From IMG/VR virus record IMGVR_UViG_2756170199_000004, positions 6,382 to 70,381 of that record: DNA of 64,000 nucleotides; one strand, given 5' to 3'. The DNA is from a virus (Duplodnaviria > Caudoviricetes). Below, piece after piece: positions 6,164 to 45,494 of this stretch (position 1 is its first letter; the number at the start of each line of letters is the position of its first letter). Position numbers and translations under genes: made by a program. The notes below the pieces were generated by a model. That model did not search any database. It was given only the letters and a program-made list of their open reading frames with translations, and was not told where the DNA came from.

Positions 6164-7459
6164 ATGAGGCTGAGAGAACGGGCATTACAGATCGCGAACG
6201 AAGACATCAGCTTCCAGAGCGACGCATTTTTCCGGGAGCTGGCCGCACTGTTCCGGGAGCTGGAAGGTATCGAGCCCGCAAAGATGGCGGACCACGAAGC
6301 GGCTCTGCAATTACCGGCGGTGATTGCGCACTACACCGGGATGAACGTGAAAGTGGCATGGGGCGAAGACGGTCCTTCGGTCACGCCCCCACTGGTGACG
6401 AAGAATCACGTGTTGCTCAACAGGTGGGCGGATCACATCCGGCAGCGTATCTTTCCCAATGTCGATGGCGACAAGATCATTGCAGAGAGCAAAACACTGC
6501 CCGTCGGCCGGGTTGATCGCAGGAATGCCCGCGTTTCAGGCGTGTTCAGTGAGCTTGCGGCAACCCTCTATCTGCCGGTCCGGATCTTCCAGATCAAGCT
6601 GACAGCGGACGAAGTCGCCGCGCTTGTGCTGCATGAGCTCGGGCACGTGTTTGTCTATTTCGAGCTGATCAGCCACACGCTGACGACCAATCAGATCCTC
6701 GCAGGACTGTCGAAGAAACTTGACCAGTCTGCAGGCATCAAGGATCGCGAGGCTGTGCTCGTGAAGGTCAAGTCATTCGCAGAGCTGAAGGAGCTTGACG
6801 CGGAGCTGCTTGCCAGATCGAACGACAGGAAGGTTGTCGAGCTTGTCGTGGTAACCAGCATTGCCCGAGAGCTGCAGTCCGAGCTCGGGATGCCCCGGTT
6901 CGACATGAACAGCTTTGAGACACTGGCTGACCAGTTCGCGGTACGTATGGGGGCTGGCCGTGAGCTGGTGACGGCGCAGGACAAGATCAACAAGGCAGCG
7001 CGCCACGTCAGCTATCGAGGCATGCTCGCCTGGTTCTTTGCAGACGTTCTGAGGGTTATCCAGCTGGTCTCGGTACCGTTTGCTCTCGGCGGCGACATAT
7101 GGCTGTTCCTGATGATTGCCTGGAGCGTCGATCCGGTGAGCGCGTCGGACGATGAAACTGCGGCGTATGGATCTCTCAAGGCCCGGTACGAGCGGATTCG
7201 TGAACAGATGGTCGAAGGTCTGAAGAATGCAGATCTTGATAAGGACGCTGCTTCAGCCTATGCGGAGGATCTGAAGGTGGTCGACGAAATCCTCGCCACG
7301 GTCAGGGACCGCAGGGATCTCTTTGCCTGCGTGGCCGATTTTCTCTCCCCGTCACGACGTCGGCGGAGTTCGCAGGAACAGCTTCAGCGCGAGCTTGAAC
7401 GTATCGCGAACAACGAACTCTTTGTGAAGGCGGCGGCGCTCAGGCAGGCCGCGATCTGA
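6164..7459 (+). CDS. Virion-associated zincin (HExxH) metallopeptidase-like protein (gp83-like)
   Basis: LVLHELGHVF plus FETLADQFAVRMG (M48-like ExxAD) and a hydrophobic segment; core synteny. Confidence 0.7.
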   Translation: MRLRERALQIANEDISFQSDAFFRELAALFRELEGIEPAKMADHEAALQLPAVIAHYTGMNVKVAWGEDGPSVTPPLVTKNHVLLNRWADHIRQRIFPNVDGDKIIAESKTLPVGRVDRRNARVSGVFSELAATLYLPVRIFQIKLTADEVAALVLHELGHVFVYFELISHTLTTNQILAGLSKKLDQSAGIKDREAVLVKVKSFAELKELDAELLARSNDRKVVELVVVTSIARELQSELGMPRFDMNSFETLADQFAVRMGAGRELVTAQDKINKAARHVSYRGMLAWFFADVLRVIQLVSVPFALGGDIWLFLMIAWSVDPVSASDDETAAYGSLKARYERIREQMVEGLKNADLDKDAASAYAEDLKVVDEILATVRDRRDLFACVADFLSPSRRRRSSQEQLQRELERIANNELFVKAAALRQAAI

Positions 7460-38959: not shown

Positions 38960-40822
38960 ATGGAGGGACCTGTGAGACCTGATCAGACAATCGAAAGAAA
39001 GTCGGTGAAAAGCCTGAAGGACCTGCGCAACCTGCTTGTACAGGAAGCGCTACCAGACAATGTCGAGCCACATTTCACCCTGAAGAATGCGATTAATGGG
39101 GAGCAGGATTGCGTCAAGGTAGCAGTCTACAAATTCCTGAGCGACTATCTGGAATATCCCGTTCAGGCCATTATCGAGTCCCTGGGCAAGCATGGATATG
39201 AACGGGAGCGGATCCGCTCCGCAGTGAACGCATTGGTCATCGAAGGCTATCTCGTAGGGCGCGGACATACCGGTCATCCAGTGCATCCGGGACCCGGCAA
39301 CGTACGGTTGCTTGAGGGCAAGACGATGCCTCATGAATCTGGTCACGCTCGCGAGACCAGGCCGTCGCATCGAGCAGCCGGACATGCGAGGCCAGATCCA
39401 GACGGCATACTCCGTCATCAGGACGGACTCGACGCGACGATCTGGAAGGCAACGCAGGATCACGTCATCCGGCCCCTCGATACGGTCGTTCAGATTGTTT
39501 GTATTGCGGGTTTCGCGCCGCACCTTGTCAAGGCGGAAATCATGCTGCTAGAACGCAAGGGCTGGTTCGATATGGATCAGGCCGGCAACGTGCTCTCATG
39601 TCGTCTCAGGGACGACGTCGCGAATCCTCATGGGTTTCACTTGAAGATTGAAGAGGAATACGAAAAAGATTTTGATCCGACCCAGGCAGCACAACCAGGC
39701 AGTCTGCTTGAAAAGGTCCAGCATGCACAGCGTGAGATGGAAGAATCGTCCCGGAAGCCCGGCGGACTGCCTGACGCGAAGACTCTCCTTGCTGATATCG
39801 GGAAGGGCCCATTCACACGGATGGAGCGCGCGTTGCTGGTGCACCGGTGGATCTGCCGGCTGGTGTCAGACGGCCGGCGGATGAGTAACAGGGAAATTTT
39901 TTGCGCGCTTGATGCGGCTGGCTTTACTTCTTCCATGAAAGGTACCGCGGGGGTGGTCGCGAAACTGCATCATGACGGCCTGCTGCAACGCGCGGAACTG
40001 GTGGCAGGCGATCCGCTGCAGGGGTATGTCTACTGGCTTGCGAATGGGGTGAATCCGATGCAGGTGCAACCCGGTGGCAAGATGTGGCGAGCCTGCAGGC
40101 AGGCGCTTGCGGATGGCGCACATCTGTCGGCCGCGCACGTGAAAGAGCGTATGGCCGCCGGGGGATGGGACATCTCTGTGACAACGGTCGAGCAGACCCT
40201 TCTCTCCTACTGGAAGGCGTCGCTTCTGTACCGGGAGACCGGAGGTGAAGGTAAGGCCTGGAGCGCGGGCCAGGAGGTTCGCTATTGGCTGGCAAGGAAC
40301 TATCCAGCGTATGCGCATGAGGATCAGGGAACCGTGGACGGTGAGCAGACACCTGCCCCTGTGCTGGAAACAGCGGTAACGCAGAAACGGGGCGCGCGAC
40401 GGGCTGATCCGCTGGCCGCGTGGTTCGCGTCTATTGACTCTTTTCCTGACTCCGCGCAGACCTCGGCAATGGAGACGCAGCCCGGAGTATCGGCCTCGCC
40501 CCGGGAACCGCGCCTCAGTCCGGTTACCGGGCCCCTCGTGATCCGTGCGACGCTGCAAGGGGTCGAGCTGACGTTGCAGGAGTGTGGTGATCTGCTACGC
40601 GAACTCAAGGAATCAGGCTTGCTCACGCTGATGCCATCAGGCACAGGTGTGATCGAGTCACACTTCACGATTCGGGGTGTCGAATTGAGCCTGATGGAAC
40701 TGCTGCAGGTCGCGGCATATCTGGAGAGCGCGGGGCGATATCTTTCTCCGCCGCCACCCTTGCCTCCGGCATATGGCAGCAGCGTCGTGCCCATCCAGCC
40801 CCAGCGGGTGAACAAGCGATGA
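38960..40822 (+). CDS. Protein with ~4 tandem winged-helix-like repeats
   Basis: Repeated helix-helix-helix-strand units ending LVIEGYL, LERKGWF, LHHDGLL, YWKASLL; duplicated C-terminal (L/I)xGVEL(T/S)LxE. Confidence 0.6.
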   Translation: MEGPVRPDQTIERKSVKSLKDLRNLLVQEALPDNVEPHFTLKNAINGEQDCVKVAVYKFLSDYLEYPVQAIIESLGKHGYERERIRSAVNALVIEGYLVGRGHTGHPVHPGPGNVRLLEGKTMPHESGHARETRPSHRAAGHARPDPDGILRHQDGLDATIWKATQDHVIRPLDTVVQIVCIAGFAPHLVKAEIMLLERKGWFDMDQAGNVLSCRLRDDVANPHGFHLKIEEEYEKDFDPTQAAQPGSLLEKVQHAQREMEESSRKPGGLPDAKTLLADIGKGPFTRMERALLVHRWICRLVSDGRRMSNREIFCALDAAGFTSSMKGTAGVVAKLHHDGLLQRAELVAGDPLQGYVYWLANGVNPMQVQPGGKMWRACRQALADGAHLSAAHVKERMAAGGWDISVTTVEQTLLSYWKASLLYRETGGEGKAWSAGQEVRYWLARNYPAYAHEDQGTVDGEQTPAPVLETAVTQKRGARRADPLAAWFASIDSFPDSAQTSAMETQPGVSASPREPRLSPVTGPLVIRATLQGVELTLQECGDLLRELKESGLLTLMPSGTGVIESHFTIRGVELSLMELLQVAAYLESAGRYLSPPPPLPPAYGSSVVPIQPQRVNKR

Positions 40823-41316
40823 TCGAGCTGATCGACGGGAGCATTTTCTATGTCGACGTCGAAGCGATAGTGAATCCGGTGAACTGCGTCGGGGTGATGG
40901 GCCGCGGGCTCGCCCTTCAGTTCAGGAAGGCGTACCCGGAAAACTTCGACGCATATGTGATCGCGTGCCAGCGTGGCGAGTTGCGCCCAGGGCATGTCTT
41001 CGTGTTCGAACGCAAACCACCGGCAAACCCTAGATACATCATCAATTTTCCCACCAAGCGTCACTGGCGCGACAGCAGCCTTATTGAAGACATCGATGCA
41101 GGTCTTGTCGACCTGGTCAATGTGATGCGCTTCCGCAACATCCTCTCCATTGCGATTCCACCGCTCGGCTGTGGTCTGGGCGGACTTGACTGGGAGCAGG
41201 TGCGCCAGCGCATAGAACATGCCATGCGACGCGCGCCACAAACGTATGTCCTGCTTTGCGTGCCAACGCAGGGAGCCAGAGAACAGAACCATGGAAAACA
41301 GAACTGTGACAAGTAA
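40819..41316 (+). CDS. Macrodomain ADP-ribosyl hydrolase (DarG/Poa1p-like)
   Basis: IVNPVNCVGVMGRGLALQFRKAYP, IINFPTKRHWR, IAIPPLGCGLGGLDW; ATGA overlap. Confidence 0.9.
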   Translation: MIELIDGSIFYVDVEAIVNPVNCVGVMGRGLALQFRKAYPENFDAYVIACQRGELRPGHVFVFERKPPANPRYIINFPTKRHWRDSSLIEDIDAGLVDLVNVMRFRNILSIAIPPLGCGLGGLDWEQVRQRIEHAMRRAPQTYVLLCVPTQGAREQNHGKQNCDK

Positions 41317-41958: not shown

Positions 41959-42146
41959 AGCCTCCAGCGGAGCAAGACGTTTTCTGCCGCACGACCGCGC
42001 TTACTTCGCCACGGCGCAACCGCTCGCCGTGGCGTTTTTGCCGCCGGCATCATGCGAAGGTCGACGGATCATGTCAGCAATAAAAACTGACTGCTTCGAC
42101 AAATTCAATGGAGCGTATCTGCTTATCACACACAGGAGGTCACGCC

Positions 42147-42473
42147 GTGCGGAGCAAATCCGTCAAAGCCCGTATCAGGTTCAACAAACTACGCCATCAG
42201 GCCCGCACGAGTGGTACGGGTGGCTATCTTATCTTCTCGAACCGGATGCGCAGTGTGCTGCGGGTCTGGTGGAAGCCGGCGCCGAGCGCGACATCAGGTC
42301 GCCCGTTTGCGCAGTATCTGAAAGGCGACTACGCCACGGGGCTGATGTTTGTCTACACGGTGAGGACACGTCAGCCTGAAAAAGATCTCACCCAGAGGGA
42401 CCTGAGTGACGAGGAAACCCGCCGTTCTTTTTTCGTCCGGACGTCAGTACGTGGCCGGAGCGCTCTTCCGTAA
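42147..42473 (+). CDS. Small basic hypothetical protein
   Basis: AGGAGGT RBS before GTG 42147. Confidence 0.55.
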   Translation: MRSKSVKARIRFNKLRHQARTSGTGGYLIFSNRMRSVLRVWWKPAPSATSGRPFAQYLKGDYATGLMFVYTVRTRQPEKDLTQRDLSDEETRRSFFVRTSVRGRSALP

Positions 42474-42614
42474 CCCGCTGTACCTGAGATTCAAATTCAT
42501 CGCCGATTTGTAGATCCGGCACCTTTCGCCCACCAGATTCGCGATGCGAGTCGGGGGGCGTTTCGTTTTTAGTTACCTGGATGACGCAAGTTGCCCAATG
42601 GGAGATTTTAAAGT

Positions 42615-43298
42615 ATGCAGACCATCCGATTTTCAGCGGAAATGTTGAAGGCCGTTGCTCTCCTCGCGGGGACGAAAGACCACCGCGCTTACCTGAATGG
42701 TGTGCTTGTCGAGGCACGCAAACATGAAACGCGTCTGGTTGCCTCATGTGGCCACAAGCTGGGAATAGTGCGCATGGGCATTGAGAATGCTGTCGATCAC
42801 GACACGTCGGTAATCATCCCACTGAGCGTGTTGCGTCAGATCAAGGTTCGGGCTCGGCCCGGACTGCTTGCGATACTGGCGATCGACGGTGACAAGCACT
42901 ATCTCCAGATTCCCGAGCACGGCCTGCAATACGAATTCATACCCGTAAAGGACAAGTACGTTGATTACGCCAGAACGGTGCCTGGCGAGTTCTCGGGGAC
43001 AGCGGCCCAGTTCGATCCCCAGCACCTGATGGATTTCTCCCGGTGCGCTGCCGTCCTGACCGGCAAGCCAGTCGTTCCTCGTGTAACGCCTAACGGAGAC
43101 AAGGCGGCGCTCGTGACGATTAATGGCTACAACGATTTCGTAGGCGTTGTCATGCCCTACAAGTTCCAGGCAACGGACAAGCCTGCCGACGTCAACTGGT
43201 TCAAGAAGGTGCGCCTGTCTACGCCAGGACAGGATCATGCCAATTCATCCCCTTCAGCTCGCCGCGGAAATCGTGCGGCGCTCACCGCAACACGGTAG
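42615..43298 (+). CDS. DNA polymerase III beta sliding-clamp homologue (short, ~2 domains)
   Basis: DHRAYLNGVLVE, LVASCGHKL, IIPL, KYVDYARTVP, FDPQHLMDF, GVVMPYK match DnaN domain motifs. Confidence 0.75.
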   Translation: MQTIRFSAEMLKAVALLAGTKDHRAYLNGVLVEARKHETRLVASCGHKLGIVRMGIENAVDHDTSVIIPLSVLRQIKVRARPGLLAILAIDGDKHYLQIPEHGLQYEFIPVKDKYVDYARTVPGEFSGTAAQFDPQHLMDFSRCAAVLTGKPVVPRVTPNGDKAALVTINGYNDFVGVVMPYKFQATDKPADVNWFKKVRLSTPGQDHANSSPSARRGNRAALTATR

Positions 43299-43734
43299 GC
43301 AGCAGTCGAACCAATCGGTACAGAAGCTCGCCTACTTCTGTCACGGATGGAATCTGGCTCTGAGAGACGAGCCTATCGTTGATGAACTATTCGAAGCGTG
43401 GCGGCTCGGGCCAGTGCTCGGGCCGCTGTATCACACCTTGCGGGTGTTTTCGATCAACCCGATCCCCGCGGACCATCCTTTCATAGCACGACAGCCACAT
43501 CTGCCGGACGACAGCATTGAGGCGAAGCTGATCGAACGGGTGCTGGAGGTCTACGGAAAGTTGAGCACGGCGCGACTGTCTTCCATTTCACGCATTGATG
43601 GCGGGCCGTGGGAGATCGCCTGGCATGAATCGTCCCATGAGTGTCCGATCAGCAACGAGTCGATCCGAGCCTGGTTCGATCGCATCGCACACTTCGAATA
43701 CACGCCAGGTGAACATCTCTCAGAACACGACTGA
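43237..43734 (+). CDS. Orphan SocA/Panacea (DUF4065) antitoxin-domain protein
   Basis: QKLAYFCHGWNLA, LFEAWRLGPVLGPLY, VLEVYGKLSTARL, GGPWEIAW, ISNESIRAWF; AGGA RBS; overlaps the clamp ORF. Confidence 0.85.
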   Translation: MPIHPLQLAAEIVRRSPQHGRQQSNQSVQKLAYFCHGWNLALRDEPIVDELFEAWRLGPVLGPLYHTLRVFSINPIPADHPFIARQPHLPDDSIEAKLIERVLEVYGKLSTARLSSISRIDGGPWEIAWHESSHECPISNESIRAWFDRIAHFEYTPGEHLSEHD

Positions 43735-43781
43735 GCGAGGCTGGTGTGTCGTCTGCGCCTGGAGAGGCCACCGGGAGATCC

Positions 43782-44042
43782 ATGGAACACAAGGGGTTTG
43801 TGATGGAAATGCTTAAGCCGGTGTGTGAGACGTGTGGCGATGGGGAGCAGCTGCCGCAGTATGGCGTGGCGCCGCATGAATGCTTCTACAAGCTGGGCCT
43901 CCCAATGGGGCAATCGCAGGTGAAGCCTGCAAGCGAGTGGCCCGACAATTTCGAGCTTGATCCCGAAAGCGATGGGCAGCTTGGTATATACCACTGTCCG
44001 GCGTGTGGCCCAAAGTTTCGTGAGGGCGTTCGCATCGAATGA
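43782..44042 (+). CDS. Small Cys/His-rich (Zn-finger-like) protein
   Basis: CETC...HEC...YHCPAC; GGGAG RBS. Confidence 0.55.
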   Translation: MEHKGFVMEMLKPVCETCGDGEQLPQYGVAPHECFYKLGLPMGQSQVKPASEWPDNFELDPESDGQLGIYHCPACGPKFREGVRIE

Positions 44043-44120
44043 GTTCGCGCCCTCAGGGGCTTTTCATCAGGTAGCCTTGTTTTTTTGGAGTGGTGCCGTG
44101 CGCTTCATGGGGAGCATGCC

Positions 44121-44294
44121 ATGCCTAGCAAATCTGCCAGACAGCACCGGTTCTGGAACATCGTCTCACACAGTCCAGAGTTTGCGAAGAAGGTGGACGC
44201 GAGCAAGAAGGTTGCCGACGAGTTTCTCGAGGCGGACCGCCGCGCCCGCCGGTATCAGTCCCGGTCCAATCCTCTGGTCCCGAAGAAAAAATAG
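44121..44294 (+). CDS. Small phage protein of the MPSKS...HxPxFAKKV type
   Basis: MPSKSARQHRFWNIVSHSPEFAKKVDASKKVADEFLEAD; GGGGAG RBS. Confidence 0.7.
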   Translation: MPSKSARQHRFWNIVSHSPEFAKKVDASKKVADEFLEADRRARRYQSRSNPLVPKKK

Positions 44295-44302
44295 AAGTCG
44301 CT

Positions 44303-45328
44303 TTACCGAGCCTGTCCTCTGAACAGGGACCGGGACCGCCCCACGGAGAGCTTCAGGTAACGATCAAGGCCGGTGTAGTAACGGATTACCGATCTGAATT
44401 CGCTCATCTGTCTTATATTCCCGACCCCGGGAGCACTGTACCCTTTCATTGAACGGTTCCAGTGGAAATACACTCCCGCGCCCATCGTCACATATTCGTT
44501 CCAGTAGGATCCGATATCTTCACCCGCTGCTTCCAGATCAGTTTCGTTGTCGATGGCGAGGAAAAAAAGGCAACGATACCGGTAGCCTGTTCCGGCACTG
44601 TGCTCGAGTTTGATTGCGTATCCGATCATATCCGGAGAAAAATCGTAGACGAGATGCCGGATCAGTGCATTGCGATGTCCCTTGAGTTCCTGGAGCGAGA
44701 CATCCGGCCACCTATGCATCGGTCCAGAACCGTTGGTATAACCGAGGTCGATTCTGACGGCCGGAAGGATTTTGTACTTTTTCAGTAGCAGGGAAAAGTA
44801 GTCACGCAGACTGCGCCGATTTTGATTACTCGAATGAGCGAATCTACGGTCAGCGAGGCCAACTTGACCTTGTTCAAGGTCGAATCGGATGCCTTTCAAC
44901 GTCTGATTAGTCGCATGGATAATCCCAAGTAACCGACTATCATTGACCGCGTCAATATCGGAAAATCGGAACTGGTTCCTGATATTTTCCGCCTGCTTAA
45001 TAAATTCATTCAGGGCGGGACTCACCGCGCAATTGCAGAACACATCCTTGATCTGGAGTCCGTCAATGCCAAGCCATGTCTTGATTAGATCCGCATCTGG
45101 TGAGCTGGCAATCGTGCACCGTTCGTTTGACTGGCTAATTGCCTGATTCAGGATTACGTCGAACCCGGCCTTCATTTTTCTGCGCATCAGATGGATTGCA
45201 GAGATCTGATCCAGAATCCGGTTTTCTGCCGTTGCGTATCCGAGGTTATTTCTTGCACGTGGGTTTCCAAAGTAGGAGAAACGCTGCTGCATCCCGTATT
45301 CAACGGCATTCTGAAAAGTGAAATTCAT
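44303..45328 (-). CDS. YagK/YfjJ (inovirus Gp2-like) domain protein
   Basis: VRIDLGY, GYAIKLEH...GYRYRCLFFL, IGSYWNE...GAGVYFHWN...GVGNI; lower GC; GGGAGG RBS. Confidence 0.65.
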   Translation of the reverse strand: MNFTFQNAVEYGMQQRFSYFGNPRARNNLGYATAENRILDQISAIHLMRRKMKAGFDVILNQAISQSNERCTIASSPDADLIKTWLGIDGLQIKDVFCNCAVSPALNEFIKQAENIRNQFRFSDIDAVNDSRLLGIIHATNQTLKGIRFDLEQGQVGLADRRFAHSSNQNRRSLRDYFSLLLKKYKILPAVRIDLGYTNGSGPMHRWPDVSLQELKGHRNALIRHLVYDFSPDMIGYAIKLEHSAGTGYRYRCLFFLAIDNETDLEAAGEDIGSYWNEYVTMGAGVYFHWNRSMKGYSAPGVGNIRQMSEFRSVIRYYTGLDRYLKLSVGRSRSLFRGQAR

Positions 45329-45392
45329 AGACAGGCCTCCCGATGGGAAATGCCCCCGCAATTGTGGGGACAAAACGAAATCGCGGGTGCTC

Positions 45393-45494
45393 AAGTTAGA
45401 TCCTTTGGCAACGAGTTAGATCTACTATCCATAGATCCCGGCACTTTGGGTTAGCGCTCTGACTAATGAATTGCTTGGACAGTGGATCTAACTT
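45393..45494. repeat. AGTTAGATC repeats: two direct (20-bp period) and one inverted
   Basis: 45394-45402, 45414-45422 and reverse copy 45485-45493; 11-bp perfect inverted pair AAGTTAGATCC/GGATCTAACTT. Confidence 0.7.

Follow-up and report, generated by a model that had tools for sequence, protein, structure and literature searches.

A phage mini beta-clamp and an orphan Panacea antitoxin homologue with genes joined by a 62-nt overlap in one jumbo phage clade

Introduction

Why would a phage encode a shortened DNA polymerase sliding clamp, and why should its gene run into that of an antitoxin homologue? The question is raised by a locus in a 64,000-nucleotide stretch of viral DNA (positions 6,382 to 70,381 of the IMG/VR record IMGVR_UViG_2756170199_000004), referred to here as the window. 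An earlier note on this DNA described a short beta-clamp (DnaN-like) homologue whose gene overlaps a DUF4065 gene by 62 bp without a toxin gene beside the pair, and proposed that a truncated host-type clamp and an antitoxin form a single decoy-plus-antidote device against toxin-antitoxin defences that target the clamp or are controlled by Panacea. The proposal drew on the SocAB system of Caulobacter, in which SocA is a DUF4065 proteolytic adaptor. The toxin SocB binds the hydrophobic pocket of the clamp, and SocA is a DUF4065 protein (PMC12795458, PMC8832971). In PanA-PanT (PanAT) systems the same domain, known as Panacea, partners dozens of unrelated toxin folds; the antitoxin gene usually precedes the toxin gene, and both toxin-upstream arrangements and overlapping pairs exist (Kurata et al. 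2022, PMC8832971). In the literature we found nothing on a clamp-Panacea pair, nothing on phage mini-clamps, and no function described for the mini-clamp family to which the phage protein belongs.

Results

The record from which the window is taken is 70 kb long with an estimated completeness of 26%, and the window is part of it. The large genes of the window have PHROG matches to a phage RNAP beta-like subunit, PolB, a DnaB-like helicase and a major head protein. The last of these is 44-48% identical to its counterparts in Burkholderia phage FLC9 and the Ralstonia phages RP12 and RP31, and it matches 216 phage records, mainly jumbo phages of Pseudomonas, Erwinia and Salmonella. Judged by this gene content, the source is a phiKZ-like jumbo phage; the IMG/VR classification of the record as 'provirus' is odd beside it. 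The assembly of Paraburkholderia sp. GAS448 encodes a major head protein that is 95% identical to that of the window, and in another Paraburkholderia assembly (G158) the same gene block as in the window lies at about 246 kb on contig C5 (locus L096), the contig with the pair thus exceeding 246 kb. Since related phage genes are found in two Paraburkholderia assemblies, the host is a Paraburkholderia. Near-identical jumbo phage genes were seen in two Paraburkholderia isolate assemblies (L087 on contig C81 of G051, and L096), and the location of phage genes inside isolate assemblies hints at either a carrier state or a phage co-cultured with the isolates.

The transcription unit upstream of the pair is closed by an intrinsic-terminator-like hairpin on the + strand (42007..42034), in which a 10-bp stem, 9 of its pairs being GC, precedes TTTTTG. 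A gene-poor gap of about 575 nt (42040-42614) lies between the hairpin and the clamp gene; the ORFs within it lack the GC-by-position pattern of real genes, none is a convincing gene, and the gap could contain a promoter, a leader region or a small RNA. The mini beta-clamp gene (ORF A, 42615..43298, + strand) encodes 227 aa from an ATG start, 9 nt upstream of which a Shine-Dalgarno-like GGGAGA can be read from the sequence (42600..42605, + strand). It is overlapped by the gene for a 165-aa Panacea-domain antitoxin homologue (ORF B, 43237..43734, + strand), hereafter PanA. The same operon continues with a variable member, a small Zn-ribbon-like ORF with a CxxC...CxxC pattern (43746..44042, + strand; phrog_5457, E 2.2e-11), and the last + strand gene of the block encodes a small basic protein (44085..44294; phrog_16759, E 1.6e-13), the likely start of which is the ATG at 44121, given that the phrog_16759 match begins at residue 13. 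The small basic protein is kept in two related loci, L085 and L096. Convergent to this block on the minus strand is a gene for a 363-aa protein (44303-45394) with 32-38% identity across L085 and L096 and a weak match to phrog_7120; Pfam and PADLOC gave no match to it.

Counted with stop codons included, the clamp tail and the N-terminus of PanA share 62 nt (43237..43298, + strand), as the earlier note had it, and PanA is read in the +1 frame with respect to the clamp. The longest ORF B frame opens at a TTG at position 43147. Two observations favor the ATG at 43237 as the start: homology with gp9 of Burkholderia phage phi52237 runs from residue 1, and this ATG is preceded by an AGGA at a distance of 7 nt. 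In L096 the two genes again share 62 nt, and in L085 they share 62 or 65 nt according to which of two adjacent ATGs is chosen. The same pair with the same overlap in related phages cannot therefore be an accident of assembly or annotation. The PanA N-terminus, M-x-I-x-x-L-Q-L-A-A-E-I-V-R-R-S, is kept in distant homologues that have no upstream clamp gene, and the overlapped clamp tail has pLDDT values below 50 in the AlphaFold2 model and is longer than in most family members. The constrained frame in the overlap is that of PanA, and the clamp tail looks like a by-product of the joining of the two genes. No obvious slippery site for a clamp-PanA frameshift fusion was found when the overlap was read by eye. 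Clamp and PanA are probably coupled translationally through the overlap.

The identification of ORF A as a clamp homologue was confirmed. It matches Pfam DNA_pol3_beta_2 (PF02767) with an E value of 4.1e-8, above the curated cut-off, and, over its full length, phrog_3007 (E 5.3e-23), with residues 3-184 aligned to positions 2-186 of a 190-position profile. A family profile built from 69 members matches the beta clamps of the PDB with an E value of 7e-28, its positions 11-140 aligning to DnaN residues 142-271 and its positions 150-180 to residues 336-366. The DnaN of the Paraburkholderia host gives the same two-piece alignment. The AlphaFold2 model of the mini-clamp (mean pLDDT 87.8, pTM 0.80) is confident except for residues 207-227, a predicted disordered tail. 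Foldseek relates the model to a beta clamp with an E value of 2e-10, and VIA-align superimposes model residues 1-184 on residues 125-366 of E. coli DnaN (Z 14-18, rmsd approximately 2.5 A over approximately 176 residues). The modeled residues 1-184 correspond to domain II of DnaN and to a hybrid half of domain III in which the first helix of that domain is combined with its last three strands. Counterparts are present only for DnaN residues 125-271 and 336-366; domain I and residues ~272-335 are missing, and consequently so is the canonical head-to-tail dimer interface that closes the ring. With 184 structured residues, the protein does not contain the three domains (I, II and III, of about 120 aa each) that define a complete clamp.

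The most conserved columns of the family are positions of the peptide-binding cleft, R152, Y154, L155, G157, G174, M362 and P363, followed by P242, D243 and R246, in the numbering of the E. coli protein as mapped through the profile alignment. From this conservation we infer that the cleft is the part of the mini-clamp family that is under selection. In the clade to which the window belongs the cleft has changed at several positions (Y153A, T172S, D173C, P242V, R245A, V247T and M364Y), and a function of the cleft is less certain for this clade than for the family as a whole. By our own count, the window protein is identical to host Paraburkholderia DnaN at about 14 of 24 motif positions, the family consensus at about 21 of 24. 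The window cleft is therefore less host-like than that of the family, which is the opposite of what a decoy of the host clamp would need.

The mini-clamp is also not the truncated host-type clamp that the earlier note took it to be, but a member of a large, independent phage family. It is only 26% identical to host DnaN, because of which it is best placed in an old phage lineage rather than regarded as a recent capture from a host. When a library of 1.84 billion proteins was searched with a family profile (the A2 profile), 1547 cluster representatives matched at E<=1e-30. Among the 150 best of them, nearly all are 183-260 aa long, and the few longer members (254-410 aa) have no second Pfam domain, so no fused forms were found. 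IMG/VR contains at least 204 relatives, from which 80 loci were retrieved; a metagenome scan with the clamp as query had no matches. Cultured phages that encode family members include BcepC6B (gp31, L002 5088-5603), Bcep781 (gp15, L004 4977-5558) and RS-PII-1 (gp41, L003 3222-3929). RefSeq and PHROGs label phrog_3007 as a 'RusA-like Holliday junction resolvase'; the protein has no Pfam RusA match at E<=0.1 and its fold is that of a beta clamp, and the label looks like a propagated error.

Most family members are encoded within replication and recombination modules or next to the terminase gene in phages of about 40 kb, and their most frequent large neighbors in the IMG/VR loci are the large terminase subunit, DNA polymerases, primases, a RecE-like exonuclease and helicases. 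The gene lies between the DNA polymerase gene (gp32) and an endonuclease gene in BcepC6B, is the lone opposite-strand gene among the head genes of Bcep781, and sits among small early genes in RS-PII-1. A recurrent downstream partner was sought across 69 loci and none was found, the most frequent being phrog_871 in 7 of them. The gene downstream of the mini-clamp in L012 (4626-5618) is an RdgC homologue (Pfam E 1.9e-111), and in L037-L041 a SNF2-type helicase begins 2 nt after the clamp stop codon. Such neighbors suggest that the family functions in recombination or replication. Downstream start codons in the other clamp loci are crude (the RdgC match of L012 begins at residue 33 of its ORF), and overlaps in those loci were not relied on.

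ORF B is likewise a clear homologue of its family, as had been claimed. Its match to Pfam SocA_Panacea (PF13274) spans all but the last of the 113 profile positions (1-112) and scores 46.6 bits (E 7.6e-12), where the cut-off is 25.7. The protein also matches phrog_1281 with an E value of 6.5e-31, and it is 54.5% identical to gp9 of phi52237 over residues 1-152; in the jumbo clade the protein has a C-terminal extension of about 10 residues. The closest relatives outside the jumbo clade (45-55% identity) are encoded in Paraburkholderia genomes and by P2-like prophages of Burkholderia. A gene for a gp8-like protein of about 310 aa lies directly 3' of PanA in phi52237 and in each of the five other non-jumbo loci retrieved, and we regard its product as a putative PanT toxin; antitoxin followed by toxin is the usual PanAT order (PMC8832971). 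The gp8-like genes retrieved include phi52237 gp8 itself (L086 3977-4921), L091 3525-4406 and those of L097-L099. Pfam, PADLOC and PDB sequence searches gave no match for the gp8-like protein; the one lead, a weak one with an atlas score of 0.87, is to adenylate/guanylate cyclases.

The gp8-like gene is absent from the window and from the two Paraburkholderia assemblies with related jumbo phages, and Pfam, PHROGs and PADLOC revealed no recognizable toxin gene among the neighbors of the window pair. With the usual partner of its subfamily absent, the phage PanA is therefore a true orphan, a point on which the earlier note was right, and the only conserved gene that adjoins it is the mini-clamp. 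Its likely source is the PanA-gp8 pairs of Burkholderia and Paraburkholderia prophages, from which it would have been taken without the toxin. PanA homologues were found in 7 of 151 sampled Paraburkholderia genomes; two of these represent the phage itself and three are gp8-linked. Neither of the two host assemblies with related phages encodes a PanA apart from that of the phage, or a gp8-like toxin, and the toxin that PanA is proposed to counter has therefore not been seen in a known host. PanA has no clamp-binding motif of the QL[SD]LF type, and its N-terminal QLAAE is common to homologues without an upstream clamp.

Clamp and PanA genes adjoin each other in further genomes, though only within one jumbo phage clade. 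Co-location of the pair was confirmed on DNA for L085 (clamp 79% identity, PanA 82%) and L096 (clamp 63-64%, PanA 79%), and two further relatives are indicated by clamp and PanA homologues that share the longest-contig values 275198, 32740, 3090 and 282688, of which two values probably correspond to loci already counted. Together with its overlap, the pair recurs only in about five closely related jumbo phages, and this restriction to one clade implies a single evolutionary event. Elsewhere, a Panacea gene was found anywhere in the record for none of 80 clamp-bearing IMG/VR records (15 of them at least 90% complete) and in none of three complete cultured clamp-bearing phages; conversely, none of four PanA-bearing viral records has a mini-clamp. 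Around the constant pair the flanks vary: the Zn-ribbon gene is missing from L085 but present in L096 (84%), which has an extra gene of 172 aa as well. Since overlapping genes are hard to separate, the persistence of the pair is weak evidence of a functional couple.

About 1.3 kb upstream of the clamp gene is a second antitoxin homologue, an orphan DarG-type macrodomain (40819..41316, + strand; Pfam Macro, E 4.7e-22; PADLOC DarG, E 2.7e-68). The PADLOC match covers positions 1-156 of the 329 in the model, i.e. the N-terminal half of DarG, and neither a DarT gene nor the C-terminal half of DarG is present. The macrodomain may serve to remove ADP-ribosylation of the DarT type. The accessory block has two antitoxin homologues, each without its toxin, which is consistent with a counter-defence island, and a counter-defence role for PanA is plausible. 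The look of the block agrees with the counter-defence side of the earlier proposal, and the claim that clamp and PanA are one device is not supported.

Discussion

The explanation towards which we lean, by a modest degree, is that the pair consists of two accessory genes of separate origin that are expressed together, one for a cleft-bearing mini-clamp that binds other proteins and one for a stolen PanA directed against gp8-like toxins. A Paraburkholderia clade of phiKZ-like jumbo phages would have acquired the mini-clamp and PanA separately, and a single small operon would now express both, with translation coupled through the 62-nt overlap. The mini-clamp would act as a soluble binder of proteins with clamp-binding motifs, either host replication and repair proteins or a phage partner, and not as a ring-shaped processivity factor. 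PanA would neutralize gp8-like PanT toxins met in the host, by analogy with the antitoxin Dmd of T4, and the two proteins would function independently of one another. Against this explanation, even where the clamp has diverged to 63% identity the pair is kept with an overlap of exactly 62 nt while flanking genes change, a pattern that also fits a functional couple.

The phage proteins can be compared with several known systems. The mini-clamp has the same domain fold as the bacterial DnaN proteins of E. coli (1MMI) and P. aeruginosa (6AMS), and its family has their cleft motifs RxYLNG, GH(K/R)L and VVMP, of which the window protein keeps about 14 of 24 positions; DnaN has 366 residues against the 184 structured residues of the mini-clamp, in which domain I and the dimer interface are missing. 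Within phrog_3007, the proteins of BcepC6B (gp31), Bcep781 (gp15), RS-PII-1 (gp41) and Anchaing are 29-39% identical to it and of the same family and length, but in the jumbo clade the tail is longer and the cleft has diverged, and the carriers of those proteins are non-jumbo phages of about 42-48 kb that have no Panacea gene. The inhibitor Gp168 of phage Twort (PDB 7EVP) binds the host clamp. Like Gp168, the mini-clamp is a phage protein predicted to act on the clamp interaction network; unlike it, the mini-clamp is itself a fragment of a clamp and would compete for clamp ligands. T4 Dmd is a phage antitoxin that counters RnlA and LsoA (cited in PMC8832971). PanA resembles Dmd as an orphan antitoxin of a virulent-type phage without a cognate toxin, whereas it has a different fold, is linked to a different toxin family, and has a role that is predicted from its homology. 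With the PanA-PanT systems (PMC8832971) PanA has the Panacea domain in common, the nearest example being phi52237 gp9-gp8; it differs in having neither a gp8-like nor any other recognizable toxin gene on its 3' side, and the mini-clamp gene overlaps it upstream instead.

It is conceivable, and in our estimation unlikely, that the mini-clamp serves the DNA polymerase of the phage in processivity or tethering, with PanA as a passenger unrelated to it. The closest non-jumbo relatives do have the gene directly 3' of a phage DNA polymerase gene (BcepC6B gp32-gp31; L005), and replication genes are common neighbors throughout the family. However, the protein has neither domain I nor the greater part of domain III, so that the canonical ring interface is absent, and in the window its gene is in an accessory block approximately 36 kb from the PolB gene. 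Furthermore, cultured jumbo relatives with the same type of PolB are not among the 12 phage records that have a homologue, so that the mini-clamp does not belong to the core replisome.

The decoy-plus-antidote proposal has a low probability in the light of these results. It would make the clamp fragment, co-translated with PanA, a bait for cleft-binding toxins (SocB-like or RipA-like) or clamp-motif effectors, which PanA would then neutralize or pass to a protease. SocAB of Caulobacter offers a precedent, in that a DUF4065 protein and the clamp cleft are involved in both; SocB binds a pocket that the mini-clamp family keeps, the pair and overlap are conserved within the clade, and the neighborhood has a counter-defence character. 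Nevertheless, no SocB gene was identified from the annotations of the neighbors, the clamp here is phage-encoded and is not the target, and the PanA lineage is tied to another toxin family, its partner being a gp8-like protein and not a SocB-like one. No clamp-targeting toxin was identified in the host, and the cleft has diverged from that of the host clamp. The link from SocB through the clamp to SocA rests here on a single adjacency event in one clade, with Panacea in 0 of 83 other clamp-bearing records and a clamp in 0 of four viral records with PanA, and a single device is consequently not supported. Were it true, a phage-borne combination of target mimic and antitoxin would be a form of counter-defence so far undescribed.

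We would give just as little credence to the pair as a PanAT toxin-antitoxin module with the toxin gene first, in which the mini-clamp titrates clamp-binding proteins and stalls host replication and PanA is its cognate neutralizer or regulator: the genes overlap, are bicistronic and stay together while their neighbors change, and such arrangements and such diversity of toxin partners have precedents (PMC8832971), but in other phages no antitoxin-like gene accompanies the mini-clamp, which is followed there by genes of many kinds, this PanA subfamily otherwise partners a downstream gp8-like gene, and a DNA_pol3_beta or clamp toxin is neither among the rows examined in the supplementary tables of Kurata et al. 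nor in the text of the NetFlax paper.

Under the explanation that we favor, with two separately acquired and co-expressed genes, each half of the pair has a meaning of its own. The mini-clamp family is large and has been mislabelled in RefSeq and PHROGs. A free-standing cleft that cannot close a ring in the canonical way suggests a means by which phages could compete for the many partners of the host clamp. The orphan PanA of a virulent-type jumbo phage, traceable to prophages of the same host group, is a clean candidate for counter-defence by antitoxin theft.
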